Part shown: positions 2,480 to 64,000 of the stretch, piece by piece
Position numbering within the stretch: position 1 is the stretch's first letter
Layout of the letters: each line of letters begins with the position of its first letter
NCBI GenBank assembly: GCA_028687275.1
Contig: JAQUAK010000001.1
Coordinates: forward strand, 228,213-292,212
Direction of reading: 5' to 3'
Origin: Patescibacteria group bacterium
GTDB taxonomy: Bacteria > Patescibacteriota > Patescibacteriia > Patescibacteriales > UBA12465
DNA: 64,000 nucleotides
Program-made: the position numbers and the translations under genes
The notes under the pieces: generated by a model
Databases searched by the model: none
Told to the model about the DNA's origin: nothing
Seen by the model: the letters and a program-made list of their open reading frames with translations, nothing else

Positions 2480-3040
2480 ATGACTACTCCTTGGATAATC
2501 GCTGCCATTGTCATCATCTTAGCTTTTGTTTTAATGGGCATGTATAATGCTCTGGTTCGCTCTAAAAATAGAGTGGATGAAGCTTGGAGTGATATCGATG
2601 TGCAGTTAAAACGTCGCCATGATTTAATTCCTAATCTGGTAGAAACTGTAAAGGGCTATGCTAGCCATGAACAGGAAACTTTGACGAAGGTAGTTGATGC
2701 TCGTAATGCCGCGATGTCCGCTCAGTCAAGTAATAATTCAGAAGAGCTCTTAAAAGCTGAAAATAATTTAAGTACGGCTTTAAAATCCATTTTTGCTTTA
2801 GCGGAAAGTTATCCGGACTTAAAAGCTAATCAGAATTTCTTAGAATTGCAGAGAGATTTAACTGATACTGAAGATAAAATTATGGCTTCTCGCCGTTTCT
2901 ACAATGCTAACGTACGTGACTTTAATACTAAGTTACAAGTTTTTCCAACCAATATTTTTGGTCGCATGCTCGGTTTTAAAGCTTATAACTTCTTCGAAGC
3001 TATTGAAGCAGAGAAAGAAACAGTGGCCGTTAAGTTCTAG
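2480..3040 (+). CDS. lemA: LemA family membrane protein
   Basis: N-terminal TM helix then LemA-like helical domain (RRHDLIPNLV, SRRFYNANVRDFN). Confidence 0.85.
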   Translation: MTTPWIIAAIVIILAFVLMGMYNALVRSKNRVDEAWSDIDVQLKRRHDLIPNLVETVKGYASHEQETLTKVVDARNAAMSAQSSNNSEELLKAENNLSTALKSIFALAESYPDLKANQNFLELQRDLTDTEDKIMASRRFYNANVRDFNTKLQVFPTNIFGRMLGFKAYNFFEAIEAEKETVAVKF

Positions 3041-3066
3041 TATTTAATTTTTTAATTTATAACTTT

Positions 3067-3825
3067 ATGTGGATTTACATTTTGATTGTTATTGGTATCA
3101 TCTTGTTAGGTTTCTTAAAACAGGTGAATCAATATGAAAGAGGCGTCGTCTTTACCATGGGGCGCTATTCCTATGTCATGCAACCGGGTTGGCGTCTGCT
3201 TATTCCTATTTTTCAATCTTTTCGTAAGGTTGATATTCGCGTGAAAGCAGTGGATGTGCCCGATCAAAAAGCAATTACCCGTGATAACGTACCCGTGATT
3301 GTTAACGCCGTTATTTATTACAAAGTAGCTGCGGCCGAAAAAGCTATTATTGAGGTTGAAAATTTTCAATATGCTATTTCTCAATACGCTCAAACAACCA
3401 TGCGTAATATCGTGGGCGAAGCAACTTTAGATGAATTGCTTGGACAACGTGAAAAGATTGCTGATCGTATTCGTGAAATTGTTGATGCTGAAACTGATGA
3501 GTGGGGAATTAAAGTTAATAATGTAGAATTAAAAGATGTGTCTTTGCCGGAGTCAATGGAGAGAACTATTGCTAAGCAGGCTGAAGCGGAGAGAGAAAAG
3601 AGGGCGGTTATTATTAATTCGGAAGGTGAATTAGCTGCTTCCGCTAATATTGCTGCTGCCGCTAAAACCTTATCTGAAACTCCTGGCGCCTTACACTTAC
3701 GCACCTTACAATCAATTAATGATATCTCTTCTGATCAGTCTAATACTATTGTCTTTATGACACCTCTAGAAGTGCTTAAAGCTTTTGATGGTTTTGCGAA
3801 TAAGATGAATGGTGAAAATAAATAA
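3067..3825 (+). CDS. SPFH/band-7 (stomatin/prohibitin-like) membrane protein
   Basis: N-terminal TM, YERGVVFTMGRY, ITRDNVPV, AEAEREKRA coiled segment typical of SPFH domain proteins. Confidence 0.9.
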   Translation: MWIYILIVIGIILLGFLKQVNQYERGVVFTMGRYSYVMQPGWRLLIPIFQSFRKVDIRVKAVDVPDQKAITRDNVPVIVNAVIYYKVAAAEKAIIEVENFQYAISQYAQTTMRNIVGEATLDELLGQREKIADRIREIVDAETDEWGIKVNNVELKDVSLPESMERTIAKQAEAEREKRAVIINSEGELAASANIAAAAKTLSETPGALHLRTLQSINDISSDQSNTIVFMTPLEVLKAFDGFANKMNGENK

Positions 3826-3842
3826 ATTGTTGTTTTAGATTT

Positions 3843-4751
3843 ATGTCTAATCTCTATAATTACAGCGCTGTTAATAAGAGAAAAACCTGGTTTTTAATGA
3901 CCGGGTTTTTCGTCTTTATTATAATCGTGGGCTATATTTTTTCTATGGCCATGGATATCCCGCAAATACTGCCAATAGCTGTTATTATTAGTATTGGCAT
4001 GGCTTTTGTTAGTTATTGGTATAGTGATAAAATTGTTTTATCAATGTCTAAAGCTAAGGAAGTTGATAAGGATAATGGGCGTGAACTCTATCGCTTAGTA
4101 GAAAATCTTTGTATCACTGCTGGCCTGCCTTTGCCTAAGATTTATATTATTGAAGATGCCTCACCTAATGCCTTTGCTACTGGTCGTGATCCCAAACATG
4201 CTGCCATTGCTGTTACCTCTGGTCTTTTAGGTAAACTAGAAAAGGCGGAATTAGAAGGTGTGATTGCCCATGAATTATCACATATTGGTAATCGTGATAT
4301 CTTAATCTCCACTATTGCTACTGTTTTGGTGGGTATAGTGGTTCTATTAGCTGATTGGTTTCGTCATTGGTCATTCTTTGGTGGGCGTAGCCGTAATAAT
4401 GATAATAACAATGGCCAATTAGGGATGATTATTGCTATTGTGGCGATTGTGCTAGCTATTTTAGCGCCCTTTTTTGCTCAGTTATTAAACTTAGCTGTTT
4501 CGAGGAAACGTGAGTTTGCGGCTGATGCCGATGCTGCCCTTTTAACTCGTTATCCTGAGGGACTGGCGCGTGCTTTAGAAAAAATTAGCTATAATCAACC
4601 ATCGCTAAAATCAGTTAATCGTGCCACCGCTCATATGTTTATCGTTTCACCTTTGCAAGGAAAGAAAACAGGGGGCTCACTTAGTTGGTTTGCAAAAATA
4701 ATGATGACTCATCCCCCGGTAGAAGAGCGTATTAAAAAATTAAGAGGATAA
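3843..4751 (+). CDS. htpX: M48 zinc metalloprotease HtpX
   Basis: Four TM segments, HELSHIGNRD zinc motif, NAFATG motif. Confidence 0.9.
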   Translation: MSNLYNYSAVNKRKTWFLMTGFFVFIIIVGYIFSMAMDIPQILPIAVIISIGMAFVSYWYSDKIVLSMSKAKEVDKDNGRELYRLVENLCITAGLPLPKIYIIEDASPNAFATGRDPKHAAIAVTSGLLGKLEKAELEGVIAHELSHIGNRDILISTIATVLVGIVVLLADWFRHWSFFGGRSRNNDNNNGQLGMIIAIVAIVLAILAPFFAQLLNLAVSRKREFAADADAALLTRYPEGLARALEKISYNQPSLKSVNRATAHMFIVSPLQGKKTGGSLSWFAKIMMTHPPVEERIKKLRG

Positions 4752-4756
4752 AAAAT

Positions 4757-5707
4757 ATGACAACACAAGAAATATATCAGTTGGCCATTACTACTGGCAT
4801 TAAGCATGATTTAAGGGGCAAATCCTATGTAGGGCGTTCTACAGACAAGTTGAAGAAAAAATATGAAGAGATGAGTGAAAAAGAAAAACAATCTTTTGAT
4901 CTTGAATCTTTAAACAACCCCTATGCCGATTCACGAATTTTAAATTCAGATGGAAAGAAAGTTATAAAAAAAGTTTTAGTTGGTATTGATATTGAAGGCA
5001 CCGAATTATTATATGCCGATAAGAGAGGTGATATTGATTTAGTTATTGCCCACCATCCAGAAGGTTTAGCTTTGGCTGGTTTAGCAGAAGTAATGCATCT
5101 ACAGGCCGAAGTTCTAGCTCAGTATGGTGTCCCAATTAATATTGCTGAGTCTATTATTCAGCCCAGAATTTCTGAGGTAACCCGTGGTATTAGCCCGGTC
5201 AATCATCAGCGTTCGGTTGATTTAGCGCGTCTGCTCGGTTTAGAATTTATGTGTCTCCATACACCGGCCGACAATCTATCAGCTCAGTTTGTGATTGAGG
5301 CAATTAAAAATGAGGGTGATAAATTAGAAACAGTGGGCGAAATGATGGATTTTCTAAAGACTATTCCTGAATATGCTGCCGCCGAAAAAATGAAGTCTGG
5401 CCCGAAAATATTTGCCGGAACACCGGAGCGCAGTTTAGGCAAAGTGGTGGTGACAGAATTTACTGGTGGCACTAGTGGCTCTAAAGATATTTATGAAAAG
5501 ATGGCTCAATATGGCATTGGCACTGTTATTGGCATGCATATGAGCGAAGAGCATCGCAAAGAAGCAGAGAAGTATCATATCAATGTTATCATTGCCGGTC
5601 ATATGTCTTCTGATTCTTTAGGGATGAATTTAATGTTGGATGAAATTGAAAAACAGGGCATAGAAGTTGTGCCAATTTCCGGCTTAATTAGAGTCAAGCG
5701 TTTCTAA
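4757..5707 (+). CDS. NIF3/DUF34 family (GTP cyclohydrolase 1 type 2 homolog) protein
   Basis: DLVIAHHPEG and IIAGHMSSD metal-ligand-like motifs and overall length typical of NIF3 family. Confidence 0.7.
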   Translation: MTTQEIYQLAITTGIKHDLRGKSYVGRSTDKLKKKYEEMSEKEKQSFDLESLNNPYADSRILNSDGKKVIKKVLVGIDIEGTELLYADKRGDIDLVIAHHPEGLALAGLAEVMHLQAEVLAQYGVPINIAESIIQPRISEVTRGISPVNHQRSVDLARLLGLEFMCLHTPADNLSAQFVIEAIKNEGDKLETVGEMMDFLKTIPEYAAAEKMKSGPKIFAGTPERSLGKVVVTEFTGGTSGSKDIYEKMAQYGIGTVIGMHMSEEHRKEAEKYHINVIIAGHMSSDSLGMNLMLDEIEKQGIEVVPISGLIRVKRF

Positions 5708-5775
5708 GTAAAGACAAGACTTGGTTTATCTGTCAAGATTTTATTAAATCTTCAGATAGATTATACTAAAAGCAT

Positions 5776-6366
5776 ATGCTCGCCTACTTATCAGGAAAAG
5801 TGATTGCTAAAAATAATAATTACCTAATATTAAAGGTAAATAATGTTGGCTATCAAATTTTTGTTGGCGAGTCTTTGTTATCTTCAATGAACAAGGGAGA
5901 GGAGAGGGAATTATACCTATCTCATCAAGTACGAGAAGATGCTTCTGATCTCTATGGTTTTAAAAATTTAGAAGATTTAGCTTTATTTGAATTATTATTA
6001 TCTGTTTCTGGTGTTGGTCCAAAATCAGCCCTCGGCGTACTCTCAATTGCTTCCGCTGATGATATTCGTGAAGCCGTTATTCGTAATGATGCTAGCTTAT
6101 TAATGAAGGTTTCTGGAATTGGTAAAAAAACAGCGGAGCGAGTGGTCTTAGAGTTAAAGAATAAGATTACTAAGATTATTGGTGGCAGTAGTTTAAATGG
6201 TGAGAGCAGTCTTTCGGCTGGCTTCGGCGATGAGTTGGATGCTTTGATGTCACTTGGTTATTCTTTACCCGACGCCCGTTTAGCCTTAGAAGGATTAGGC
6301 GTTGATTTAAAAGATAGTGGCGAAAGAGTAAAAGCGGCTTTAAAGAAATTAAGTAAAAAAATATAG
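5776..6366 (+). CDS. ruvA: Holliday junction DNA helicase subunit RuvA
   Basis: MLAYLSGKV...VGYQIFV OB domain, two HhH motifs (VSGVGPKSAL, VSGIGKKTAERV), C-terminal domain III. Confidence 0.9.
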   Translation: MLAYLSGKVIAKNNNYLILKVNNVGYQIFVGESLLSSMNKGEERELYLSHQVREDASDLYGFKNLEDLALFELLLSVSGVGPKSALGVLSIASADDIREAVIRNDASLLMKVSGIGKKTAERVVLELKNKITKIIGGSSLNGESSLSAGFGDELDALMSLGYSLPDARLALEGLGVDLKDSGERVKAALKKLSKKI

Positions 6367-6398
6367 CTTTATATAAAGATTAAGTATAGATTAATTAT

Positions 6399-7625
6399 AT
6401 GAAACAATCCCATTTATTTACCCGCACACTGAAGGAATTACCAAAAGACGAGACAAGCTATAATGCGCAAACACTTTTGCGCGCTGGTTTTATTGATAAG
6501 GTGGCGGCTGGTGTTTATTCTTTCCTACCTTTGGGTTGTTTAGTAATGGATAAGATTAGACAGATCATTAAAGAAGAAATGTTATCAGTTGGCGGTCAAG
6601 AAGTGAGCATGCCTGCTTTTGCGCCCAAAGAAAATTGGGAAGCGACTGGGCGTTGGGATGACTTGGATGTTTTATTTAAAATTTCTGCTTCTGATAAAAA
6701 AGAATATGCCTTAAATCCCACCCATGAAGAGGTGGTGACGCCGCTGGCTAAAAAGTTTATATATTCATATCGTGAATTGCCTTTTTCGGTCTTTCAAATA
6801 CAGACTAAGTTTCGTAACGAAAAAAGAGCTAAGGCCGGCTTATTGCGTGGTCGCGAATTTTTAATGAAAGATTTATATTCCTTTCATACTGATCAGGCAG
6901 ACTTAGATAGATATTATGAAGAAGTGAGTACGGCTTATGAGCGAATTTTTAATCGCGTTGGCCTTGGCGATAAAACTTATTTAACTTTTGCCTCAGGTGG
7001 AACTTTTGCTAAGTATTCACATGAATTTCAGACTCTAACTGAATCAGGCGAAGATTTAATCTATATTTGTGATAAGTGTCGTCTGGCGGTAAATAAAGAA
7101 ATTATTGCCGACCAATCAACTTGTCCTAAATGTGGCAGTAAAGATTTACGAGAAGAGAAGGCGGTGGAAGTTGGCAATATTTTTAAATTAGGTACTAAGT
7201 ATTCAGCTCCTTTTGATTTAAGTTATAGTACTCAGGAGGGGAAGAAGGAATTAGTGGTGATGGGCTGCTATGGTATGGGCTTAAGTCGTGTTATGGGAAC
7301 AGTGGTAGAGGCTTGTCATGATGATAAAGGAATTGTATGGCCAGAAAATATTGCCCCTTTTAAGGTTCATTTAGTTTCGTTAAAAGAGAATGAAGCGGCC
7401 GAGAAAATTTATCAAACCTTACAGGCGGCTGGTGTTGAAGTTTTATATGATGATCGTGATTTATCGGCTGGTGAAAAATTTGCTGATGCTGATTTAATTG
7501 GTTGCCCTTATCGCATATTAGTAAGTAAAAAAACCCTAGCTCTTGATAGCATAGAATTAAAGAAGAGAAACGAAGAAGAATCACAAATTGTAAAAATTAA
7601 AGATATATTATCTTATGTTCAATAA
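6399..7625 (+). CDS. proS: prolyl-tRNA synthetase, bacterial type, no INS editing domain
   Basis: Class II motif 2 FRNEKRAKAGLLRGREFLMKDLYSFH, motif 3 GCYGMGLSRV, C-terminal anticodon-binding domain; CDKC...CPKC mini zinc ribbon where INS normally sits. Confidence 0.9.
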   Translation: MKQSHLFTRTLKELPKDETSYNAQTLLRAGFIDKVAAGVYSFLPLGCLVMDKIRQIIKEEMLSVGGQEVSMPAFAPKENWEATGRWDDLDVLFKISASDKKEYALNPTHEEVVTPLAKKFIYSYRELPFSVFQIQTKFRNEKRAKAGLLRGREFLMKDLYSFHTDQADLDRYYEEVSTAYERIFNRVGLGDKTYLTFASGGTFAKYSHEFQTLTESGEDLIYICDKCRLAVNKEIIADQSTCPKCGSKDLREEKAVEVGNIFKLGTKYSAPFDLSYSTQEGKKELVVMGCYGMGLSRVMGTVVEACHDDKGIVWPENIAPFKVHLVSLKENEAAEKIYQTLQAAGVEVLYDDRDLSAGEKFADADLIGCPYRILVSKKTLALDSIELKKRNEEESQIVKIKDILSYVQ

Positions 7626-8661: not shown

Positions 8662-8663
8662 TT

Positions 8664-9476
8664 ATGCTTTTATTTTGGAAGCAAAGAAATTATTGGCGTT
8701 GGTTTGGAGTCATCCTCTTGATTCTAATATTACATTGGGTTGGCTTATTGCGTCCCATAGAAAATTATTTATCTAAGGTTGTTAGACCAGTTGATCATTA
8801 TTTGTATAGTATTGGTTCTTGGTTTAAGGGTGCTCCTTACGATGATTTATCAATAGAAGGTTTAGAGCTTAAGTTAGAGCAGGCGCAAACAGAATTAGCT
8901 CTTGCTACTATTGATCAAGCAAAACTTGAGCTTCTGACTGAAGAAAATGATAAATTGCGTCAGCAGTTAAATTTTTTAGATAACAATCACTATGAAGCGG
9001 TGGGAGCTAATATTGTTTCTCGACAGGATTTATTCAATACTGCCGATAATGCCCAAGATATTATTTTAGATAAAGGAGCTAGAGACGGTTTACGTCCGGG
9101 CTTAGGAGTTATTAATGAGTCAGGTATAATTATCGGAAAAATTATTGAGGTTAAAGATTATAGTGCTCGCGCTTGTTTAACTACGGGCTCTGATTGTCAA
9201 TTAGCGGCTGCTCTTTTAAACGATTCTAAAACTGTTGGCTTGTCTGAAGGGGAATTAGGCTTAACGATCAAGATGAATTTTATTCCGCAGATGGAAGAAA
9301 TTAAAACCAATGATATCTTAATTACCTCTGGTTTGGGTGATGATATTCCGCGGGGTTTAGTAATTGGTCGTGTGGCGCAGGTTAATAATCAAAGTAATGA
9401 AATTTGGCAGGATGTAACGATTGAGCCACTCGCTTCTTTACATAATTTAACTGTAGTTTCAGTCATTATTCCTTGA
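8664..9476 (+). CDS. mreC: rod shape-determining protein MreC
   Basis: N-terminal TM, coiled coil (LELKLEQAQTEL...LRQQL), C-terminal beta domain with IPRGLVIGRV; position after mreB; ends with TGA. Confidence 0.8.
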   Translation: MLLFWKQRNYWRWFGVILLILILHWVGLLRPIENYLSKVVRPVDHYLYSIGSWFKGAPYDDLSIEGLELKLEQAQTELALATIDQAKLELLTEENDKLRQQLNFLDNNHYEAVGANIVSRQDLFNTADNAQDIILDKGARDGLRPGLGVINESGIIIGKIIEVKDYSARACLTTGSDCQLAAALLNDSKTVGLSEGELGLTIKMNFIPQMEEIKTNDILITSGLGDDIPRGLVIGRVAQVNNQSNEIWQDVTIEPLASLHNLTVVSVIIP

Positions 9477-9480
9477 GCCT

Positions 9481-10020
9481 ATGTCTAAGCAAATAATAAA
9501 ATACGTATTATTGCTTACCGGCGTCGCTATTTTAGCTTTGTTACAGTTTTCTTTTATTAGCGCCCTACCTTGGCCTATTAATAATTTTAACTTAAGCTTG
9601 GTGGCGATTATTTTTTCTCTTTTATTTTTAGATAAAAAGGACTCTTGGGTAATTGCTATCTCTCTGGGCTTTTTTACAGATGCTTGGTTGTTTCATCCTT
9701 ATGGCACTGCCATCTTATCTTTCTTTTTAACAGCGGTGGCCCTTTACTTAATTTTAGAAAATCTATTAACTAATCGCTCACTTTATTCTTTCTTGCTACT
9801 TACCATTATAGCCGTATTGATTGACACCATCTTTACTCGTGTTTTTTTAATAATATTTGACTGGTCAGGAGCGGGTGCTAGTCATTTTTTAGTTAGTAAT
9901 TTATTTTGGGGCTCGTTGATGTGGAATTTAATTTTGAGTTTGTTGGTAGTGGGTTTTATCTTTAGTGTTTTGGCTATTTTAAGCAGAAGATTAAAGCCAT
10001 TCTTTTTGAAAAGACGTTAA
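9481..10020 (+). CDS. mreD: rod shape-determining protein MreD (polytopic membrane protein)
   Basis: About 5 TM helices, size and position directly after mreC. Confidence 0.6.
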   Translation: MSKQIIKYVLLLTGVAILALLQFSFISALPWPINNFNLSLVAIIFSLLFLDKKDSWVIAISLGFFTDAWLFHPYGTAILSFFLTAVALYLILENLLTNRSLYSFLLLTIIAVLIDTIFTRVFLIIFDWSGAGASHFLVSNLFWGSLMWNLILSLLVVGFIFSVLAILSRRLKPFFLKRR

Positions 10021-10053
10021 TTTATGTTATTATATTAATTAAATAGTTAAATT

Positions 10054-11040
10054 ATGCTATACGATGTAATTACAATTGGAGGAGCAACTCGGGATATTAG
10101 TTTTTTAACGGATGAGGGAATTTTAATTGATAATCCTCGTGATTTATTGCGTCAAAAATTATTAGCCTTTGAATATGGAGCTAAATTAAAAGTTGATCAT
10201 TTTTATAATCTTTTTGGTGGTGGCGCTGCTAATGCCGCTGTTAATTTTGCTAATTCAGGTTTTAAAACAGCTTGTTTAGCGAGAGTAGGGAATGATAATA
10301 ATGGTCGTGATATTATTAATAATTTGCGTCAGCGTGGGGTGGACATACAGATGACACGTAGTGATGATAAGGCTTCGACTGGTGTTTCTTTTATTCTGGT
10401 GACTGGTAGCGGCGAAAGAATTATCTTTACTAATCGTTCGGCTAATAATGATTTAGTGATTAGAGCTGGAGAAATAAAAGCGATTAGACAGGCAAAAAAT
10501 TTATATATTGCTTCTTTGTCTGGAAATTGGCAGGCTGTCTTGCGCTCAGTCTTTAAAAACAGTTCGGCTCGTATTGCTTGGAATCCTGGTTCTTCTCAAT
10601 ATCAGGCAGGCTTAAAAAGATTAGCTCCATTTTTAAAAAAAACTGATGTTTTTTGTGTTAATAAAGATGAGGCGATTGAGCTGGTGCTCAGTGATGTCCG
10701 CTATAAGGGGAAAAAACCAGCTTTTTTAAATAATGTTAATAACTTATTGTCAGCTCTGCATGAGTTTGGCCCACGCTTAGTGTTGATTACTAGTGGCGTG
10801 GAAGGGGCCGATGTTTATGATGGAAAAAAATTCTATCATCAGGATGTTTTAAAAGAGAAAAAACGTGTAGATATCACTGGTGTAGGAGATGCTTTTAATT
10901 CATCTTTTGTGGCTGCTTTAGAATTGAGTAAGGGGGATATTAAGCAAGCATTATATGCTGGTGCTAAAAATACGGCGGCTAAAATTGCTTATTTTGGTGC
11001 CCAAAGTGGTTTGTTGGATTTGAGAAAAATAATTAAATAA
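10054..11040 (+). CDS. pfkB/ribokinase-family carbohydrate kinase
   Basis: N-terminal ITIGGATRD, GGGAANAA, C-terminal pfkB signature DITGVGDAFNSSF. Confidence 0.8.
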   Translation: MLYDVITIGGATRDISFLTDEGILIDNPRDLLRQKLLAFEYGAKLKVDHFYNLFGGGAANAAVNFANSGFKTACLARVGNDNNGRDIINNLRQRGVDIQMTRSDDKASTGVSFILVTGSGERIIFTNRSANNDLVIRAGEIKAIRQAKNLYIASLSGNWQAVLRSVFKNSSARIAWNPGSSQYQAGLKRLAPFLKKTDVFCVNKDEAIELVLSDVRYKGKKPAFLNNVNNLLSALHEFGPRLVLITSGVEGADVYDGKKFYHQDVLKEKKRVDITGVGDAFNSSFVAALELSKGDIKQALYAGAKNTAAKIAYFGAQSGLLDLRKIIK

Positions 11041-55410: not shown

Positions 55411-55596
55411 ATGGAAATAAAAGAACTTACAAGCAAAACTCCAGCTGAATTACAGAAATTACTGGCTCAATATCGCGAAAAGTTGCGAGAATTGCGTTTT
55501 AAAGATTCTAATCGACAGCTGAAAAATGTCCGTGAAATCAGACAGGTTCGTGAAAATATTGCACGCATCTTCACGGTTCTTAACACTAAAGTTTAA
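55411..55596 (+). CDS. rpmC: 50S ribosomal protein L29
   Basis: 61 aa, LREKLRELRFK helical hairpin, operon position. Confidence 0.92.
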   Translation: MEIKELTSKTPAELQKLLAQYREKLRELRFKDSNRQLKNVREIRQVRENIARIFTVLNTKV

Positions 55597-55884: not shown

Positions 55885-55937
55885 AGTAGCTTGGTTGTTT
55901 GTTTTCATTATTTGAAACAACAACGAACAATACTGGT

Positions 55938-56312
55938 ATGATTCAAGTGCAGACAAAATTAAAAGCAGCCGATAATTCCGGCGCCAAAGAAGTTATGTGT
56001 ATCCGCGTTTTAGGCGGTTATCGCAAACGTTATGCTGGCGTAGGTGATGTTATCGTTGTTACTGTAAAAAGCGTCTCCCCTCACGCTGCTATTAAAAAAA
56101 GTGACGTAGTGAGAGCAGTGGTTGTACGTACAAGCAAAGAAATTAGACGTTCAGATGGTACTTACATTAGATTCGATGATAATGCTTGTGTTATTATGGT
56201 TGATAAAGAAAAAAAGGATCCTAAGGGAACTAGAATTTTTGGCCCGGTGGCCAGAGAAGTGCGCCATGCCGGTTTTGTAAAAATTGCCTCTTTGGCACCT
56301 GAAGTTTTATAA
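55938..56312 (+). CDS. rplN: 50S ribosomal protein L14
   Basis: Start moved to [17 protein letters not shown]; RFDDNA, GPVARE. Confidence 0.96.
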
Positions 56313-56334
56313 TTAAGAGCGCCAAAACGAACAT

Positions 56335-56655
56335 ATGAACATCAAGAAAAATGACAATGTAAAAATATTAGCAGGCAAGGATCGCGGTAAAAACGGCAAA
56401 GTTTTGCAGGTTTTACCAGAAGCGGGACGTGTCAGTGTTGAAGGTTTAAATTTGCTGGTTAAGCACTTACGCCCTAATCGCGAAGGTGAAAAGGGTCAGC
56501 GCATTGAATTTCCAGCCTTTATTAATGCTTCTAATGTCGCTTTAATTTGTCCTTCTTGTGGCAAACAAACTAGGCTAGCAGCCAAAGTAGTTGCCGGTGA
56601 GAAAGGAAACAAAAAATATCGTGTCTGCAAAAAGTGTCAGACTGTAATTGAGTAA
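56335..56655 (+). CDS. rplX: 50S ribosomal protein L24 (with CxxC...CxxC)
   Basis: KOW motif GKDRGKNGKVLQV; CPSCGK...CKKCQ in C-terminal half. Confidence 0.94.
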   Translation: MNIKKNDNVKILAGKDRGKNGKVLQVLPEAGRVSVEGLNLLVKHLRPNREGEKGQRIEFPAFINASNVALICPSCGKQTRLAAKVVAGEKGNKKYRVCKKCQTVIE

Positions 56656-56665
56656 TTCCAATTTT

Positions 56666-57211
56666 ATGAGCTTAAAAGCAAAATATCAAAAAGAAGTAGT
56701 GCCGCAGCTTAAAGAACGTTTCGGCTACAAAAATAACCTTTTAGTTCCACGTTTGCAAAAAGTGGTGATTAATATTGGTTTTGGTAAACACGCTAAAGAA
56801 AAGGAAGCCATCAGTTCTATTGAAAAAGCCTTAACTAAGATTAGTGGTCAAAAACCAGTGATGACTAAGGCCAAGAAATCTGTATCCGCTTTTAAATTGC
56901 GTCAGGGTCAGATTATTGGCTCGGTAGTTACTTTGCGTGGCGAAAGAATGTATGACTTTATTGATAAATTAGTAAATGTTACTTTTCCTAGAGTTCGAGA
57001 TTTCCGCGGTATCAGTGATCATGGGGTTGACCGCACAGGTAATATTACTATTGGTTTTAAAGATTACTCTGCTTTCCCAGAACTTAGACCAGAAGATGTC
57101 GATAATGTGTATGGTTTAGAAATTTCAATTAATACTAACGCGAAAAATCGCGAAGAAGGCTTGGCTTTATTTACAGCTCTTGGCTTTCCTTTCAAAAAGA
57201 ACGAAAAATAA
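56666..57211 (+). CDS. rplE: 50S ribosomal protein L5
   Basis: Start moved to MSLKAKYQ; VVINIG, FPRVRDFRG. Confidence 0.95.
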   Translation: MSLKAKYQKEVVPQLKERFGYKNNLLVPRLQKVVINIGFGKHAKEKEAISSIEKALTKISGQKPVMTKAKKSVSAFKLRQGQIIGSVVTLRGERMYDFIDKLVNVTFPRVRDFRGISDHGVDRTGNITIGFKDYSAFPELRPEDVDNVYGLEISINTNAKNREEGLALFTALGFPFKKNEK

Positions 57212-57223
57212 TTTAATTTATAT

Positions 57224-57409
57224 ATGGCAAGAACAGCTCTAATTGTAAAAGCAAAGCGCAAACCAAAATTCTCGACGCGCAAGATTAATCGTTGCTGGCG
57301 CTGCGGCCGCAACCACGGCTATATGCGTGACTTCGGTTTATGCCGTATTTGCTTCCGTGAATTGGCCGATAATGGCGATTTACCAGGTATTACTAAATCT
57401 AGCTGGTAA
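57224..57409 (+). CDS. rpsN: 30S ribosomal protein S14 type Z
   Basis: 61 aa, CWRCGR...CRICFRE zinc ribbon, C-terminal KSSW. Confidence 0.95.
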
Positions 57410-57447
57410 ATTCCGGCCTCCATATTATCTAAACATTGAATAACAAT

Positions 57448-57858
57448 ATGACAGATCCAATCGCAGACATGTTTACACGCATTCGCAATAACTCTAAGGT
57501 TAAAAAGGCCGAGGTGTTAATGCCGATGAGTAAAATGAAATATAAAATAGCCCAAATTTTAGAAAAAGAGGGCTGGATTACCCGTGCCGAAATTGTGGCT
57601 GGGGGGCTTAATTCTAGACACAATCAGTTTGACCAACTGAAGTTGGTTTTGAAATACCAGAAAAACGGCAGTCCTTATATTAGTGGTATTAAACGTGTCA
57701 GTAAATGTGGTGCCAGAGTTTATGTAGACAAAGGTAATATCCCAACTGTTTTAAATAATTTCGGAATTGCTATTATCTCTACTTCTTCTGGTTTAATGAC
57801 TAATAAGGAAGCTTACCGACAAAGTATTGGCGGTGAGGTTATCGGAGAAGTGTACTAA
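57448..57858 (+). CDS. rpsH: 30S ribosomal protein S8
   Basis: Start moved to MTDPIADMFTRIRN; GGEVIGEVY C-terminus. Confidence 0.95.
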   Translation: MTDPIADMFTRIRNNSKVKKAEVLMPMSKMKYKIAQILEKEGWITRAEIVAGGLNSRHNQFDQLKLVLKYQKNGSPYISGIKRVSKCGARVYVDKGNIPTVLNNFGIAIISTSSGLMTNKEAYRQSIGGEVIGEVY

Positions 57859-57914
57859 CTAATTGTTGCGGGCGAATTTAGCTATTTAGCTATTTTGCGC
57901 CGTGCGAAGAAAAT

Positions 57915-58454
57915 ATGTCTCGTTTAGGAAAAATGCCAATTAATCTCTCAGCTGGAGTTACTGCTAAGTTCGAAAACGGAATTCTAACCGTTAAAGGGCC
58001 GAAGGGTGAATTAGCTAGAGAAATAAAAGCTCCTGCCTTGGTTGAAATCACCACAGAGGCTTTAAAGATAAGCGTTGATTTACAGGCTAAGGATGCTAGT
58101 GCTTATTGGGGTTTATATCGCGCTTTAGCTAATAATATGGTTTTAGGTGTGACGGTTGGCTTTACCAAAAAATTAGAAATCAATGGCGTTGGTTACAGAG
58201 CCGCTTTAAATGGCAAGAAACTTAATTTGAATCTTGGTTATTCTCATCCGATTGAATTTCCATTGCCAGATGGTATTAGCGCTGTAGTTGAAGGTAATGC
58301 TATTACTTTAAGTGGTATTAATAATGAACTTTTGGGTGATACTGCTTATAAGATTAGAAAATTACGTATCCCTGAGCCTTACAAGGGCAAGGGTGTTAAA
58401 TATGCTGAAGAAGTTATTCGCCGTAAAGCCGGTAAAACAGCTGCTAAAAAATAA
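57915..58454 (+). CDS. rplF: 50S ribosomal protein L6
   Basis: MSRLGKMPI, GVGYRA, YKGKGVKY. Confidence 0.95.
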   Translation: MSRLGKMPINLSAGVTAKFENGILTVKGPKGELAREIKAPALVEITTEALKISVDLQAKDASAYWGLYRALANNMVLGVTVGFTKKLEINGVGYRAALNGKKLNLNLGYSHPIEFPLPDGISAVVEGNAITLSGINNELLGDTAYKIRKLRIPEPYKGKGVKYAEEVIRRKAGKTAAKK

Positions 58455-58474
58455 AGCAATTGTGATTTAAATAT

Positions 58475-58834
58475 ATGATCAACAAAATTAAAAAAGATAT
58501 CGCTCGGAAAAATCGCCGTCAAGCTAGAGTAAGGGCTAAAATTAGTGGCACTGCTACTCGTCCACGCTTGAGTGTTTTTCGTTCTAATAAGGGTATGTAT
58601 TTACAGTTAATTGATGATATGGCTGGCAAAACTTTAGTTAGCGCCCATGTGCGTGAATTAAAGGAGAAGAACTTAAAGAAGGTTGAAGCTTCTGCTCTTT
58701 TAGGTAAGCTTTTAGCGGAAAAGGCAATGGCTGTAAATATTAAAGAGATTGTGTTTGATCGCAGTTCTTATCGCTATCATGGTCGTGTTAAAGCAGTTGC
58801 TGATGGCGCTCGTGAGCAGGGATTAATTTTTTAA
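58475..58834 (+). CDS. rplR: 50S ribosomal protein L18
   Basis: [37 protein letters not shown]. Confidence 0.95.
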
Positions 58835-58857
58835 AATACTTTTAATAAGATTTTTAT

Positions 58858-59538
58858 ATGGCTGATGATAACAAAAAAGTAGAAACCAGCAGTTCCAACC
58901 AAAAAGCAGCTGAGGCTGTGGCCAAAACTGTTTACGGTGGTCAGGATAAACGCTCTGGTGGTGGTAGTCGTCCTCCTCGTCGTGATAATCGCGGCAAAAA
59001 TGACGGTGGCCGCGATGAATTCGAGCAACGTATTTTAGAAATTGCTCGTGTTACTCGTGTGATGGCTGGTGGTAAACGTATGAATTTTCGTGCTTGTGTT
59101 GCTATTGGTGACCGCAAAGGTAGCGTTGGTGTTGGTTTGGGCAAGGGGGCTGATGTCACTATCGCTATTAATAAAGCTGTTAACCGCGCGAAGAAGACTT
59201 TAGTTAAAGTTCCAGTTTTAAATGATACTATCCCTCATGCTGTGTTACAGAAAGTAGGGGCCGCTTCTATTATTTTTAAACCAGCCCGACAGGGAAGTGG
59301 TGTGATGTCCGGTGGCGTTGCTCGTGCTATTTTAGAATTATCCGGGATTAAGAATGTTAGTAGTAAAGTATTAGGCAGTAATAACAAAGTAAACAATGCT
59401 CGTTGTACTTTAGCTGCTTTAGCTAGTTTACGTCAGCCTAGTACAAGGCCTGGTTCTAAGGAGAAAAAAGAGGCTAAAAAAGCTGAGACTAATACCGAAG
59501 ATAAGGCTAATGATAAAAAAATAGTCGCTAAGAAATAA
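58858..59538 (+). CDS. rpsE: 30S ribosomal protein S5 with N- and C-terminal low-complexity extensions
   Basis: Core VTRVMAGGKRMNFRACVAIGD...GSGVMSGG; about 50-aa N-extension (GGGSRPPRRDNRG) and about 35-aa K/E-rich tail. Confidence 0.94.
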   Translation: MADDNKKVETSSSNQKAAEAVAKTVYGGQDKRSGGGSRPPRRDNRGKNDGGRDEFEQRILEIARVTRVMAGGKRMNFRACVAIGDRKGSVGVGLGKGADVTIAINKAVNRAKKTLVKVPVLNDTIPHAVLQKVGAASIIFKPARQGSGVMSGGVARAILELSGIKNVSSKVLGSNNKVNNARCTLAALASLRQPSTRPGSKEKKEAKKAETNTEDKANDKKIVAKK

Positions 59539-59565
59539 GCAGATTTAAGATAATTATAAAATTTT

Positions 59566-59982
59566 ATGTTGTCACTGAATAACATTAAGCGCGCTTCTGG
59601 CGCCACCCAAAAAAGAAAGCGTGTCGGACGTGGTAACGCTTCCGGTCATGGTACTTATAGTACTCGTGGACAGAAAGGCCAAAAATCACGTGCCGGTGTT
59701 AGTAATTTAAAACGTCTGGGTATGCGTCAGCAACTGTTACAGACCCCTAAATTACGTGGCTTTCGCTCATTGCAGCCTAAGAATCAGATCGTGGCTGTTA
59801 GTGTGATTAATAAAGAATTTAAGGATGGAGATATTGTTAGTCCCAACACTTTATTCGAGAAAGATTTAATCAAGGATGCCGGTGGTAGAGTTAAAGTTCT
59901 CGGTAAAGAGAAATTAACTGTGAAGGTTAAATTCGAAAAAATGCAAATGAGTGCTTCAGTCAAGGGCCAGATATCCGCTTAG
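59566..59982 (+). CDS. rplO: 50S ribosomal protein L15
   Basis: GRGNASGHGTYSTRGQKGQKSRAG; only 27 nt after rpsE, so no rpmD in between. Confidence 0.95.
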   Translation: MLSLNNIKRASGATQKRKRVGRGNASGHGTYSTRGQKGQKSRAGVSNLKRLGMRQQLLQTPKLRGFRSLQPKNQIVAVSVINKEFKDGDIVSPNTLFEKDLIKDAGGRVKVLGKEKLTVKVKFEKMQMSASVKGQISA

Positions 59983-60022
59983 GATATGTGGTTTTTGCCT
60001 ATAAATCATAATTTAACGACTT

Positions 60023-61294
60023 ATGTTGGAAAAAATACAACAAATTTGGAAAGCTAAGGATTTGCGTCGCAATGTGCTTTTTGTTTTGGGTATGCTAGTC
60101 GTCTTTCGTTTAGCGGCTCATATTCCAGTTCCGGGTGTTGATGCTGTTGCTTTAAAGAATTTATTTAATTCCAACCAAATTTTAGGTCTAATGAACTTAT
60201 TTTCTGGTGGTGGCATGGAGAACTTTTCTATCGTGATGATGGGGATTGCTCCTTATATTACTTCTTCTATTATCTTTCAGCTACTTGGGATGATTTCACC
60301 AAAGATTGAAGAGATGCAGAAAGAAGAGAGTGGACGTCAGAAGATCAATATGTGGACTCGCTGGGCAACTGTCCCTTTAGCTGCGATGCAGGCTTACGGT
60401 ATGATTACCTTATTACAGAGCTCCAATCAGGGTATTTTAGGAGCTATGAGTAGCTTTGATTTCATTGCTATTGTTATTACTATTACCGCTGGCACCATCT
60501 TCTTAATGTGGATTGGTGAGCTAATTTCCGAAAAGAATATTGGCAATGGTATTTCCTTATTGATTTTCGCTGGTATTGTGGCCGCTTTACCTCGGCAGAT
60601 TCAGCAGATTGCTGTTAGTTACGACTCAAGTCAACTTTTTACCATTATTGGCTTTATCGTTATTGCTATTATTACAGTGGTGAGCGTGGTTATTATTAAT
60701 GAAGGTCAACGTAATATTCCTGTGCAATATGCTCGTCAAATTCGTGGACAACGTGCTTTTGGTGGCTCTAGCACCCACTTACCTTTACGTGTGAACATGG
60801 CCGGTGTTATCCCTATTATTTTTGCTATTTCCGTGGTTTTATTTCCACCAATGATTGCTCAGTTTTTCCTCCAAGCTCGTACTAGTTGGATTGCCTCATT
60901 GTCCGCTAAGGTAATCGAAATCTTTAATGATCAATTAATCTACGGTATTATCTACTTTGTGCTTGTTTTTGCCTTTACTTATTTTTATACAGAAGTTGTT
61001 TTTCATCCAGATCGTATTGCTGAAAATTTACAGAAACAAGGTGGTTTTATTCCTGGTATCAGACCGGGTAAATCAACTGTTGATTACTTATCTTATACCA
61101 CTCACCGTATTATTTTCTTTGGTGCTCTATTTTTAAGTTTAATCGCCATTCTACCTTTAATTATGCGTTACTTTACCGGTGCTCAATCTTTAGTGATTGG
61201 TGGTACTAGTTTACTCATCGTTGTGGCTGTAGTTATTGAAACAGTTAAACAGATTGAATCTCAGTTAACTATGAGAGAATATGACGGTCTCTAG
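60023..61294 (+). CDS. secY: preprotein translocase subunit SecY
   Basis: GIAPYITSSIIFQLL, GISLLIFAGI, 10 TM helices. Confidence 0.96.
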   Translation: MLEKIQQIWKAKDLRRNVLFVLGMLVVFRLAAHIPVPGVDAVALKNLFNSNQILGLMNLFSGGGMENFSIVMMGIAPYITSSIIFQLLGMISPKIEEMQKEESGRQKINMWTRWATVPLAAMQAYGMITLLQSSNQGILGAMSSFDFIAIVITITAGTIFLMWIGELISEKNIGNGISLLIFAGIVAALPRQIQQIAVSYDSSQLFTIIGFIVIAIITVVSVVIINEGQRNIPVQYARQIRGQRAFGGSSTHLPLRVNMAGVIPIIFAISVVLFPPMIAQFFLQARTSWIASLSAKVIEIFNDQLIYGIIYFVLVFAFTYFYTEVVFHPDRIAENLQKQGGFIPGIRPGKSTVDYLSYTTHRIIFFGALFLSLIAILPLIMRYFTGAQSLVIGGTSLLIVVAVVIETVKQIESQLTMREYDGL

Positions 61295-61323: not shown

Positions 61324-61348
61324 AAAATGTAGCGATGGCTACATTTTT
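61324..61348 (+). terminator. intrinsic terminator after secY
   Basis: Perfect 10-bp stem AAAATGTAGC-GATG-GCTACATTTT running into T-rich tract. Confidence 0.7.
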
Positions 61349-61358: not shown

Positions 61359-61379
61359 AGAGTTTATAAGTTTAATAAT

Positions 61380-61676
61380 ATGGATTTAAAAGACTTTTTT
61401 AAAGATATAAAAGATCAGCCAAGTTCTAGGATTGAGCGGCGTCTTGATAATTTAGTGCGCACTAATTATCACTTTAAGCACTTAAGCGAAAAAAATAAGG
61501 ATTTAGTTTTATCCTTAGTAATGAAGTATAAGGAAAAGTTAAGAACTGGCATTGGTGTCTCTCAATATGTGATTAATCGTGATATGTATAAACTGTATCA
61601 AAATCGTTATGATGAGGAATTGACTGAAGTTGATCGTGATCATATTCGTGAAATTTTAGAAAATTTCAAGCAATAA
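61380..61676 (+). CDS. hypothetical small protein (98 aa)
   Basis: Start moved to MDLKDFF, because the track N-terminus spans the secY terminator; own promoter and terminator; no family recognised. Confidence 0.55.
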   Translation: MDLKDFFKDIKDQPSSRIERRLDNLVRTNYHFKHLSEKNKDLVLSLVMKYKEKLRTGIGVSQYVINRDMYKLYQNRYDEELTEVDRDHIREILENFKQ

Positions 61677-61686: not shown

Positions 61687-61722
61687 AAGACTCTCGCGGA
61701 GAGCTCTTAGTTTTTGGTTTTT
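61687..61722 (+). terminator. intrinsic terminator
   Basis: AAGACTCTC-GCG-GAGAG(C)TCTT stem followed by TTTTTGGTTTTT. Confidence 0.6.
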
Positions 61723-62655
61723 ATGTTTTTGCACGCTCTTGTCGTTATTTTCGGTCTCTGTTTATTTGAGATTATTACTAGCGTTGATAATGCTATCATT
61801 AACGCTAATATTTTAAAAACATTAGGAGATAAATATCGTCGTTTTTTCTTGTTTTGGGGTATTTTATTTGCAGTTTTTGTTGTTCGCGGACTTTTGCCTT
61901 TTGCTATTATTTGGTTAGCCGCTCCGGGCTTGTCATTATCTGAGGTATTTACAGTTGCTTTTTCTAATAATGGCGAGGTTACCACTTATTTAAGTTCCTC
62001 CAGACCCCTATTACTAATGGGGGGCGGTATATATTTATTTTTTGTATTTTTAGCTTGGCTCTTCTTGGAGAATAAAAACTTTGCCTTTAAAATTGAGAAG
62101 TTCTTGAAGGGTAAAGTTAAAACTTTTTATTTATTACTTGTCGCCAGTATTGTCCTAATAGCATTCCTTTCCTATCAGCATAATATTAATATGTTGATAG
62201 CCGCTATCATTGGCTTGGTAGTATTTATAGGGGTTAGTGCTCTAAAAAAACACGCAGAGAGAACGGGAAGGAAATTGTTAAATCCAGCTGCTAGCGCCTG
62301 GAGCAAGATAATCTATTTAGAGGTTCTTGATGCTTCTTTTTCAGTTGATGGTGTTATTGGTGCTTTTGCTTTTACTATGAGTGTCCCCTTTATAATCATT
62401 GGTAATGGCTTAGGAGCGGTGGCCGTGCGTCAATTAACGGTTAAAGGTATTAATGTAATTAGCAAGTTTATATATTTGAAAAATGGAGCGATGTATTCTA
62501 TTGGTATTTTAGGGTTAATTATGACTTCAGAGAGTTTTGGGGTAGAATATCCTTTTTGGTTAACGCCGTTAGCTACTGTTGTCCTATTATCGTTATTCTA
62601 TGGTTATTCTGTGAAAGCACGTCGTCTTAAACTTAACGAAGAAAAAAAATTATGA
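61723..62655 (+). CDS. TerC/DUF475-like integral membrane protein
   Basis: Start moved to ATG 61723; about 8 TM helices, EIITSVDNAIINA and VLDASFSVDGVIGAFA motifs typical of the TerC superfamily; TGA stop overlaps the map ATG (ATGA). Confidence 0.65.
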   Translation: MFLHALVVIFGLCLFEIITSVDNAIINANILKTLGDKYRRFFLFWGILFAVFVVRGLLPFAIIWLAAPGLSLSEVFTVAFSNNGEVTTYLSSSRPLLLMGGGIYLFFVFLAWLFLENKNFAFKIEKFLKGKVKTFYLLLVASIVLIAFLSYQHNINMLIAAIIGLVVFIGVSALKKHAERTGRKLLNPAASAWSKIIYLEVLDASFSVDGVIGAFAFTMSVPFIIIGNGLGAVAVRQLTVKGINVISKFIYLKNGAMYSIGILGLIMTSESFGVEYPFWLTPLATVVLLSLFYGYSVKARRLKLNEEKKL

Positions 62656-63485
62656 TTTATATTAAATCTAAAGAAGAAATTGAAGTAATCAGAATGGGCG
62701 GAAAGATTTTAGCTCGTATTTTGCGCACTCTAAAAGAAGCGGTTAGGCCAGGCGTGGATACAGCTGATTTGGAGAAAATTATGTTGAGCATGGTTAAAGA
62801 GGCTGGTGGTAGGCCGGCTTTTAAAGACTATCCCATGGGTGGAGGTATTTTTTTCCCTTCAGCCATTTGTGCCTCTATTAACGATGAGGTAGTGCATGGG
62901 GCTGCTATTCCGGGAAGAATATTAAAGGAAGGGGATATTATTGATCTTGATATTGGCATGGAATGGCCAGTTAAAACAGCCTTAAGAAAGGAATTGGGTC
63001 TGCCTGTTAATTCTCATTCTCCTGCCGGTGGTTTTTATACTGATATGTGCACAACTGTGGCTGTAGGGAGGATTAGTGGTGAAGCACAGAAATTACTGAC
63101 AATTACTAAGGAATGCCTAGATGCTTCCATTAAGAAAGTTCGTCCTGGCGCCCGTATTAATGATATTGGTGGCACTGTTCAAAAGATTGCCGAGGGGGCT
63201 GGATTTGGCGTTGTGCGTGATTTAGTGGGGCATGGGGTTGGCTATCTTGCTCATGAGGACCCTGAGGTTTATCATTTTTTAATTAATGAAAAATCAAGCG
63301 CTAATTTAGAATTAAAGACAGGTATGGTAATTTGCATCGAACCGATGATTAACGCTGGTACGGCTGAGGTAAAAGTGGCTGATGATGGCTTTACCATTTT
63401 AAGTGCTGATAATTCTTTAAGTGCTCATTTTGAACATACTATTGCTGTAACTGAAGATGGTTATGATATTTTAACTTTGGAGTAA
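62652..63485 (+). CDS. map: methionine aminopeptidase type I
   Basis: Metal ligands in DIIDLDIG, GHGVG, ICIEPM, HFEHT; about 20-aa insertion after DLDIG. Confidence 0.92.
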   Translation: MIYIKSKEEIEVIRMGGKILARILRTLKEAVRPGVDTADLEKIMLSMVKEAGGRPAFKDYPMGGGIFFPSAICASINDEVVHGAAIPGRILKEGDIIDLDIGMEWPVKTALRKELGLPVNSHSPAGGFYTDMCTTVAVGRISGEAQKLLTITKECLDASIKKVRPGARINDIGGTVQKIAEGAGFGVVRDLVGHGVGYLAHEDPEVYHFLINEKSSANLELKTGMVICIEPMINAGTAEVKVADDGFTILSADNSLSAHFEHTIAVTEDGYDILTLE

Positions 63486-63486
63486 T

Positions 63487-63876
63487 ATGAATTTAGCTGC
63501 TGAAAATCAATATTTAGGCGTAGACTGGGGCGAAAAACGAATTGGCCTAGCTTTGGCTGAGCCAGAAACAAAAATGGCCCTGCCTTTTAAGACAGTTAAT
63601 AGTCTTAAAGATTTGTTATCAGTTATTATTGAGGAAGAGATTGCTTTAATTATTATTGGCGTGCCTATAAAAATGGCAGGAGAGGCGGCTAATAATCCTT
63701 TATTTTTAAATTTCTTGCAGGAGTTAAAAGCAAAAACGTCAGTACCGGTGGTAGAAATTGATGAACGTTTATCTAGCAAAGCAGCCGATGCCTTAATTGG
63801 TGATAGACGCGATAAGGCTGGTCGTGATGAAATTGCTGCCTCAATTTTTTTGCAAACTTATTTAGATAGAATATAA
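63487..63876 (+). CDS. ruvX: putative pre-16S rRNA nuclease / Holliday junction resolvase-like YqgF
   Basis: YLGVDWGEKRIGLALAEP RNase H-like N-terminus, DERLSS motif. Confidence 0.85.
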   Translation: MNLAAENQYLGVDWGEKRIGLALAEPETKMALPFKTVNSLKDLLSVIIEEEIALIIIGVPIKMAGEAANNPLFLNFLQELKAKTSVPVVEIDERLSSKAADALIGDRRDKAGRDEIAASIFLQTYLDRI

Positions 63877-63881
63877 ATTCT

Positions 63882-64000
63882 ATGGAAGCCACATATCCGA
63901 CATTAGCGATAATTTTAAATAGGCGCGACTACCGCGAGGCTGACCGCCTCGTTTCTGTTTATACTCCTAACCTAGGGCGTTTGAACTTATTAGCTCGTGG
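63882..64000 (+). CDS. recO: DNA repair protein RecO, N-terminal fragment (runs off window)
   Basis: Not in ORF track (no stop): MEATYPTLAIILNRRDYREADRLVSVYTPNLGRLNLLARG matches the RecO OB-fold N-terminus pattern. Confidence 0.6.
   Translation, partial: MEATYPTLAIILNRRDYREADRLVSVYTPNLGRLNLLAR

Follow-up and report, generated by a model that had tools for sequence, protein, structure and literature searches.

A near-invariant T before start codons as a probable part of a Shine-Dalgarno-independent start signal in Patescibacteria

Translation starts were analysed in a stretch of 64,000 nucleotides (nt) from an uncultured Patescibacteria group bacterium (contig JAQUAK010000001.1, positions 228,213 to 292,212), called here the window. 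Nearly all start codons are immediately preceded by a T, and most lack an upstream Shine-Dalgarno (SD) sequence. The T at position -1 would be maintained by selection as one element of the signal that marks starts in this lineage. With little more than even confidence, we favour SD-independent initiation on AU-rich, unstructured leaders at a UAUG, the U of which would be read by A37 of the initiator tRNA.

T at position -1 of the window starts

Starts were taken as the first ATG of each long, mutually non-overlapping open reading frame (ORF), and the upstream base was never consulted. T was found at -1 in 70 of 77 starts, and in 71 of 78 (91%) once rpmJ was added. Of 402 internal in-frame ATGs, 27.6% have a T before them, as do 29% of all ATGs on the + strand; at no other position upstream of the starts does T exceed 49%. 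With the background T frequency set at 0.276, 0.40 and 0.49, the binomial test gives p values of 6e-32, 4e-21 and 3e-15, respectively. Position -1 carries 1.13 bits of information, and none of the positions from -2 to -25 carries more than 0.28 bits. A is found at -3 in 24 of the 77 starts and is mildly in excess at -5 (46 starts) and -6 (42 starts), positions that hold no more than 0.28 bit; the A-rich, Kozak-like context of Bacteroidetes (-3, -6, -12/-13) was not found at the window starts, where the sole strong position is the -1 T. The pattern is that expected of extended pairing, U being enriched at -1 of starts relative to non-start AUGs, with no involvement of neighbouring positions. 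The chosen starts coincide with the N-termini of Pfam profiles for many window genes: profile position 1-2 aligns with residues 1-6 in uS7, uS19, uL22, uL16, uL29, uL14, uL24, uS8 and bL36.

A first-pass annotation of the same DNA had counted a T before 73 of 79 starts, and the tally holds under the context-blind rule. The rule returns the same exceptions that had been named there (A before murG, the orphan gene at 29525 and the infA ATG; C before the ABC exporter and tuf; G before comEC) and adds one, orf113, with G at 61335, for which the TATG at 61380 had evidently been taken. The 21 consecutive genes from rpsJ to secY, identified by Pfam, all start with TATG as claimed, and the comparison with internal ATGs proposed in that annotation gives 28% T internally versus 91% at the window starts. 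One correction concerns the first ORF (18-2387), which is a 5'-truncated IleRS gene and hence contributes no start.

Starts and SD-like tracts are listed below. Coordinates include the -1 base and the start codon; the tetranucleotide is TATG unless otherwise stated.

2479..2482, +, lemA
3066..3069, +, SPFH/Band7
3842..3845, +, M48 peptidase
4756..4759, +, NIF3-like
5775..5778, +, ruvA (Pfam profile position 1 at residue 1)
6398..6401, +, class II aminoacyl-tRNA synthetase
7614..7617, +, mreB paralogue 1 (11-nt overlap with upstream gene)
8663..8666, +, mreC
9480..9483, +, orf179
10053..10056, +, PfkB kinase
11045..11048, +, sugar epimerase-like
11498..11501, +, HIT protein
11897..11900, +, NDP-sugar dehydratase
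12902..12905, +, response regulator
13408..13411, +, mreB paralogue 2
14420..14423, +, GT4 glycosyltransferase
15682..15685, +, subtilase
17729..17732, +, epimerase
19871..19874, -, GT4
21053..21056, -, GT4
21388..21391, -, DUF2304
21481..21484, +, orf172
22707..22710, -, GT2
23813..23816, -, T2SS/T4P ATPase
23919..23922, +, orf138
24342..24345, +, mraY
25398..25401, +, ftsW
26539..26542, +, murG, AATG, exception (start within ftsW)
27641..27644, +, murC
29523..29526, -, orphan orf141, AATG, exception (internal TATG at 29390)
29677..29680, +, ABC exporter, CATG, exception
31779..31782, +, murB
32811..32814, +, orf145
33259..33262, +, alaS
35262..35265, +, first ATG of the infA ORF, AATG (85-residue product; probably not the real start)
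35304..35307, +, infA, T-TTG, probable real start (71-residue IF1)
35569..35572, +, rpmJ (bL36)
35730..35733, +, rpsM
36163..36166, +, rpsK
36833..36836, +, rpsD
37550..37553, +, rpoA
38384..38387, +, rplQ
38752..38755, +, rplM
39121..39124, +, rpsI
39793..39796, +, peptide chain release factor
40946..40949, +, comEC, GATG, exception
42664..42667, -, rpmB (bL28)
42831..42834, +, M50 peptidase
43518..43521, +, serpin
45023..45026, +, rpsL
45539..45542, +, rpsG
46061..46064, +, fusA
48178..48181, +, orf108 (sole gene with a canonical SD)
48593..48596, +, tuf, CATG, exception
49871..49874, +, rpsJ
50416..50419, +, rplC
51260..51263, +, rplD
51937..51940, +, rplW
52462..52465, +, rplB
53350..53353, +, rpsS
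53701..53704, +, rplV
54265..54268, +, rpsC
54976..54979, +, rplP
55410..55413, +, rpmC
55608..55611, +, rpsQ
55937..55940, +, rplN
56334..56337, +, rplX
56665..56668, +, rplE
57223..57226, +, rpsN
57447..57450, +, rpsH
57914..57917, +, rplF
58474..58477, +, rplR
58857..58860, +, rpsE
59565..59568, +, rplO (27 nt past rpsE)
60022..60025, +, secY
61334..61337, +, orf113, first ATG, GATG, ambiguous (used by the public gene call)
61379..61382, +, orf113, alternative start (15 codons downstream, same ORF; 98 residues)
61722..61725, +, TerC/DUF475
62651..62654, +, map (TATGA overlaps the upstream stop)
63486..63489, +, ruvX (TAA-T-ATG, 1-nt spacer)
2463..2467, +, AGGAG tract, 12 nt upstream of the lemA ATG
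36815..36822, +, GGAGGGAG tract, 11 nt upstream of the rpsD ATG
48162..48168, +, AAGGAGG, the only canonical SD of the window, 10 nt upstream of the orf108 ATG

Conservation in relatives

A genome scan with uL14, which proved too conserved, returned 80 loci, 9 from Patescibacteria and 71 from species outside the candidate phyla radiation (CPR); the latter served as negative controls. L30 is missing from each of the nine Patescibacteria loci, among which are Falkowbacteria and Magasanikbacteria; their SecY proteins are 59-96% identical to that of the window. With the first-ATG rule, T is found at -1 in 88% of the starts of low-GC CPR loci (n=147), in 75% of those of three CPR loci of 48-54% GC (n=79), where neighbouring positions have about 24% T, and in 26% of the starts of non-CPR loci (n=1577), which display a clear SD logo. 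AT-richness, already judged insufficient in the first-pass annotation, cannot explain the -1 T, because the relatives of about 50% GC keep it at 75%.

When starts were set by alignment to the window orthologue in the nine relatives, 144 of 149 had T at -1 and 148 were ATG; three of the five non-T starts have a TATG one codon upstream. Starts set in the same way in non-CPR loci have T in 24% of cases. An exact look-up of bL36 led to ten syntenic loci of closer relatives (L209-L218), where T precedes 152 of 159 aligned starts, all seven others being comEC. Positions -2 to -11 vary freely between orthologues.

The bases reported for the exceptions are correct, but some of these genes do not break the rule in the clade. 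MurG starts with TATG in seven close relatives, the A being thus a private substitution of this genome; the ABC exporter has TATG in six close relatives, and tuf in seven related loci. The infA gene (35304-35520) most likely starts at TTG 35305, preceded by T. T-TTG is kept in 10 of 10 close relatives, hence in 11 genomes with the window, and is the only non-AUG start found; translation from it would give a canonical IF1 of 71 residues, a length annotated in four relatives. The weak start codon recalls E. coli infC, which has an autoregulated AUU start. The only exception kept in relatives is comEC, with GATG in six and CATG in one (L209-L214, L217), and its start may be deliberately weak. No Pfam family matches the orphan orf141 (29100-29525, - strand), which lies between murC and the ABC exporter, departs from the TATG rule and has no counterpart in the syntenic relatives L209-L213; by these features it may not be a gene.

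Public gene calls disagree within the clade on the length of IF1 (63-99 residues), uS11 (127-215) and uS9 (125-164). If the TATG starts are used, uS11 (36164-36784) and uS9 (39122-39694) of the window carry N-terminal extensions of 94 and 69 residues, respectively. In the ribosomal protein operon of a Magasanikbacteria locus (L077), a GC-rich imperfect palindrome of about 55 nt, gatccctcgctcggtcg...CGACCGCTCGGGATG, is repeated six times (5917-5971, 9543-9597, 9931-9985, 11476-11530, 13881-13935, 14435-14489). The end of the palindrome always lies 14-18 nt before a TATG start, where chance would yield 0.1 copies, and the first-ATG rule misassigns starts of this locus to an ATG within the palindrome.

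Shine-Dalgarno sequences and the anti-SD

An SD-like 4-mer (GGAG, GAGG or AGGA) is found at -20 to -5 of only 8% of the window starts, which is about the level expected, by a rough estimate, from the A/T-rich composition. With the same script, values of 30-92% are obtained for the majority of the 71 non-CPR loci. SD matches of at least 5 nt precede 3 of 79 window starts. No SD logo is seen upstream of the window starts, because G is depleted at every upstream position. The three GGAGG-like tracts reported in the first-pass annotation lie where it had placed them, and the SD-independent initiation that it had proposed is essentially borne out, as most window starts have no GGAGG-like tract 5-13 nt upstream. 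The gene preceded by the canonical SD, orf108 (48162-48505 with the SD), is located between fusA and tuf and encodes a protein of 108 residues with no Pfam family.

Word avoidance in coding sequences was measured as observed over expected (O/E) relative to synonymous-codon shuffles in the window and in nine loci (L001, L002, L003, L008, L013, L018, L024, L056, L077). GGAGG is avoided (O/E 0.54, z -7.7), as are AGGAG (0.71) and GAGGT (0.75), whereas controls of the same composition are not (GGTGG 1.12, GGCGG 1.32, GGAAG 1.10, GAAGG 1.00). The expectation that the 16S rRNA had lost its anti-SD is thus not supported. Since GGAGG is avoided inside genes, the ribosome of this clade probably still carries the CCUCC tail, left unused for most initiation, much as in Bacteroidetes.

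A signal acting on the transcript

T precedes 19 of 20 starts located at most 10 nt from the previous gene or overlapping it, 25 of 26 at 11-40 nt, 15 of 17 at 41-100 nt, 5 of 6 at more than 100 nt, and 8 of 10 starts of divergent genes. No positional TANNNT (-10-like) signal was found at leaderless distance, the motif occurring at about 22% of the starts in every spacing class, and none emerges from the position matrix of the window starts; a -10 logo is similarly missing in the GC-richer relatives. Being independent of gene spacing and unaccompanied by a -10 signal, the -1 T is not a feature of promoters, transcription starts or leaderless genes. Genes on the minus strand show the T in their own orientation, and the signal therefore acts on the transcript.

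TATG is counter-selected inside genes. Its O/E in coding sequences is 0.87 (z -7.3 versus synonymous-codon shuffles), and T is found before 27% of in-frame ATGs versus 44.5% of Ile ATH codons (p 1e-9). Avoidance of internal T-ATG is evident in pooled CPR loci (p 4e-14), and not in the 71 non-CPR loci (31.2% versus 29.7%). Conservation of the -1 T at orthologues, independence of spacing and avoidance within genes all agree with the extended four-base start signal suggested in the first-pass annotation. True starts differ from the 245 internal TATGs of the window also in the upstream region, which has 22% GC versus 40% and a predicted minimum free energy of -1.8 versus -4.5 kcal/mol (p 1e-14): starts are unfolded.

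Breadth across Patescibacteria

A wider sample was obtained by SecY profile searches for named candidate phyla, starts being those of the gene calls of the public collection. T is found at -1 in 24 of 30 starts in Doudnabacteria, 29 of 35 in Kerfeldbacteria, 19 of 24 in Parcubacteria LiPW_72, 14 of 22 in Moranbacteria, 28 of 37 in Gottesmanbacteria (Microgenomates) and 29 of 34 in a CPR genome lacking L30. Homology-guided counts agree with these figures, Moranbacteria being clearly weaker (4 of 9). In Gottesmanbacteria and in locus L088 the TATG rule holds alongside some SD use.

A metagenome scan with the Saccharibacteria 16S primer TM7-580F gave 80 loci, belonging to a Saccharibacteria-like and to a second lineage, and none from the clade of the window. 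ACCUCCUUU is retained in both. The 3' ends of the Saccharibacteria-like 16S genes read GGAUUACCUCCUUUCU, and the anti-SD is thus intact. In the second lineage (L097, L112, L139, L159) T at -1 is intermediate (17 of 32), and the CCUCC tail is intact where recovered (L098, L137, L159). Several genes of this lineage have TATAAT 6-8 nt upstream of the ATG and look leaderless.

The rule is strong in the sampled Parcubacteria- and Microgenomates-type lineages, weak in the Saccharibacteria-like one and absent in the non-CPR controls. In full-text searches of a literature collection with few subscription journals, no description of this start context in CPR, Patescibacteria, Parcubacteria or Microgenomates was found, and this negative is provisional; nor was, within the same coverage, a genome-wide UAUG rule in any bacterium. 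The rule would be a lineage-wide way of marking starts, apparently not described before.

Proposed mechanism and alternatives

Most genes would lack an SD anchor, and starts would be marked by about 20 nt of AU-rich, G-poor, weakly folded sequence together with a four-base UAUG (UUUG in one gene). The extra U would most plausibly pair with an unmodified A37, next to the CAU anticodon of the initiator tRNA; the choice of A37 of tRNA-fMet as the reader draws on work in E. coli and, less strongly, in chloroplasts. A fourth pair would stabilise the codon-anticodon helix in the P site, replacing the positional information of the SD helix. If the extra pair takes over from SD pairing as the source of start-site specificity, a near-obligatory U at -1 and the absence of SD are to be expected. 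Candidate causes of the near-absolute requirement are SD pairing that is weak or goes unused, a short bS1, or some other factor. A stronger proposal, which we put forward tentatively and hold to be less than evenly probable, is that the start codon functions in effect as a quadruplet (UAUG, rarely UUUG) read by four nucleotides of the anticodon loop of the initiator tRNA, and that this quadruplet, rather than an SD helix or a 5' end, is the primary determinant of start sites in Parcubacteria- and Microgenomates-type lineages. Quadruplet reading would probably go with some change particular to these lineages, in the P site, the initiator tRNA or the initiation factors, that makes the fourth pair obligatory.

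Several observations weigh against reading of the U by A37. No tRNA-fMet gene is present in the window or in the CPR loci examined, which contain only tRNA-Leu and tRNA-Lys genes, and A37 is an assumption. To our knowledge A37 is near-universal in bacteria, and in E. coli U(-1) is only a mild enhancer despite A37; the pairing partner alone cannot therefore account for a T that hardly varies, and the model still needs some factor specific to the lineage. The preference does not extend to -2, which could have paired with A38, and tuf, a very highly expressed gene, has CATG in this genome. As about 245 TATGs persist within genes, UAUG is insufficient alone, and acts with an open leader. Compensation of a missing T by an SD sequence shows only as a trend, short of significance (70% versus 82% T, p 0.08). 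Finally, in Saccharibacteria-like loci the genes flanking the 16S have only 38-40% T at -1, and SD use is visible.

The main rival holds that U(-1) is a real determinant read by the ribosome or by an initiation factor (16S nucleotides of the P/E channel, a small-subunit protein, or IF3). We judge it unlikely, yet worth serious attention: it fits all the statistical evidence for a translational signal equally well, and would explain lineage specificity in spite of a universal A37. CPR ribosomes do differ in rRNA segments and proteins (PMC9297842), but no such reader is known and none emerged from this analysis, and published compensatory mutations favour the tRNA (PMC10018350). It is much less probable that the T stems from transcription or RNA processing, i.e. 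from promoters of individual genes (pyrimidine at -1, purine at +1) or cuts between U and A, either of which would generate leaderless AUG mRNAs. A TATAAT-like hexamer is indeed found 6-8 nt upstream of a few first-in-operon genes (murB at 31780, the ATPase at 23815), and such promoters occur in the unrelated second 16S lineage; the T is however just as regular at genes that overlap the preceding one or follow it within 0-10 nt, the frequency of TANNNT does not vary with spacing, and a simple nuclease cutting at U|AUG would cleave the internal TATGs too. Leaderless, promoter and coupling explanations were rejected on the spacing classes and the -10 search.

That the T is an artefact of base composition, of biased start assignment or of stop-start overlaps can be practically dismissed. 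The genome is AT-rich, and about a dozen starts had been moved by hand in the first-pass annotation, but the context-blind rule still gives 91%, and Pfam N-termini, orthologue alignments and independent public gene calls concur. No other upstream position reaches comparable T levels, the relatives of about 50% GC keep the signal, and non-CPR loci processed identically have 24-26% T. As for overlaps, an in-frame stop directly before the ATG gives A or G at -1, never T. Artefacts of composition and annotation were thus rejected on the context-blind rule, the GC-richer relatives, the alignments and the public calls.

Gene content of the window

The window has 37% GC, a positive GC skew in each 4-kb bin and densely packed genes; the + strand carries 71 of the 78. 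No tRNA genes and no Rfam family matches were found along the 64 kb. Pfam searches identified an envelope block (two mreB, mreC, glycosyltransferases, mraY-ftsW-murG-murC and murB), alaS followed by infA-rpmJ-rpsM-rpsK-rpsD-rpoA-rplQ-rplM-rpsI, a release factor gene, comEC, rpmB, rpsL-rpsG-fusA-orf108-tuf, and a complete S10-spc cluster from rpsJ to secY, with map and ruvX downstream. A uL30 gene is absent from the 27-nt gap between rpsE and rplO. SecY is 100% identical to a protein of a metagenome-assembled genome (MAG) labelled 'Patescibacteria group bacterium' (NCBI) and 80-85% identical to Falkowbacteria proteins. Because the uL30 gene is missing and SecY is closest to Patescibacteria MAG proteins, the source organism is, judging from these sequences, a Falkowbacteria-like member of the CPR.

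RpoA (37551-38360) and its counterparts in relatives (L209-L215, L217, L218) have only 265-273 residues and no match to the alpha C-terminal domain. Neither the window nor any of the nine relatives with rpoA inside the locus shows the domain, which is kept in Gottesmanbacteria (L087) and L088 (RpoA of 305-310 residues); from these comparisons, the loss looks clade-wide. The subtilase (15683-17725) is a protein of 680 residues with FG-GAP repeats in a small-genome organism. The serpin (43519-44766) has a hydrophobic N-terminus, signal-peptide-like by eye only.

Significance and comparison with known systems

How bacteria lacking SD sequences find starts has been studied mainly in Bacteroidetes and in leaderless systems. 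No stronger proximal signal of start context would be known in bacteria than one base that is 91-97% invariant over thousands of starts and many candidate phyla, and the subtle U(-1)-A37 effect of E. coli would become a candidate primary mechanism. If true, the quadruplet would be a further natural mode of start selection across a large share of bacterial diversity. In practice, the TATG rule resolves most disputed starts and would improve start annotation and proteome prediction in CPR; heterologous expression of CPR genes, or the reverse, may need a redesigned start context.

The system would be an unusually strong and phylogenetically broad form of extended codon-anticodon pairing combined with SD-independent initiation. 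In E. coli a fourth U(-1)-A37 pair was shown with mutants of position 37 of tRNA-fMet and about 45,000 mRNA variants, as a modest enhancer (Hollerer & Jeschek 2023, PMC10018350); complementarity of tRNA position 37 with mRNA position -1 raises translation, as seen with compensatory mutants (PMC10018350). A similar result, limited to the context of a single gene, is mentioned for petA of the Chlamydomonas chloroplast (Esposito et al. 2003, cited in PMC10018350). Position, base, action at the start codon and independence from mRNA folding are the same here. In E. coli, however, the pair modestly adjusts initiation that is led by SD sequences, and natural genes are free of any constraint to U(-1), whereas here the U is close to obligatory (91% of window starts, 96-97% of orthologous ones), SD sequences are absent, many candidate phyla are involved, and the tRNA is proposed by analogy.

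In Bacteroidetes, according to work of Baez and colleagues (from 2019) and of Jha and colleagues (from 2021), the anti-SD is reportedly kept but unused, with A-rich unstructured leaders and Kozak-like positions. The Patescibacteria are similar in lacking SD sequences, in their low-GC, weakly structured leaders, and in probably retaining the anti-SD, as the avoidance of GGAGG suggests. They differ in that the informative base is the U at -1, and not A at -3, -6 or -12; two Bacteroidetes control loci have 44% and 32% T at -1. SD-independent initiation and a general lack of SD sequences are mentioned for Bacteroidetes in PMC3155529. Leaderless initiation, mentioned for Deinococcus-Thermus, Actinobacteria and archaea in PMC12340547, shares with the present system the lack of SD and the role of the start codon itself as main signal. 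Leaderless genes have a -10 box at fixed distance and are never internal to operons; here, in contrast, tightly packed internal cistrons obey the rule, and there is no -10 logo.

In the same superphylum, unusual ribosomes are reported, with the CCUCCU motif lost in another subgroup of Parcubacteria (Tsurumaki et al. 2022, PMC9297842). Start-codon context is not described there, and the avoidance of GGAGG argues here against loss of the anti-SD. In contrast to that subgroup, the TATG rule holds also in lineages that make some use of SD sequences, such as Gottesmanbacteria and L088.

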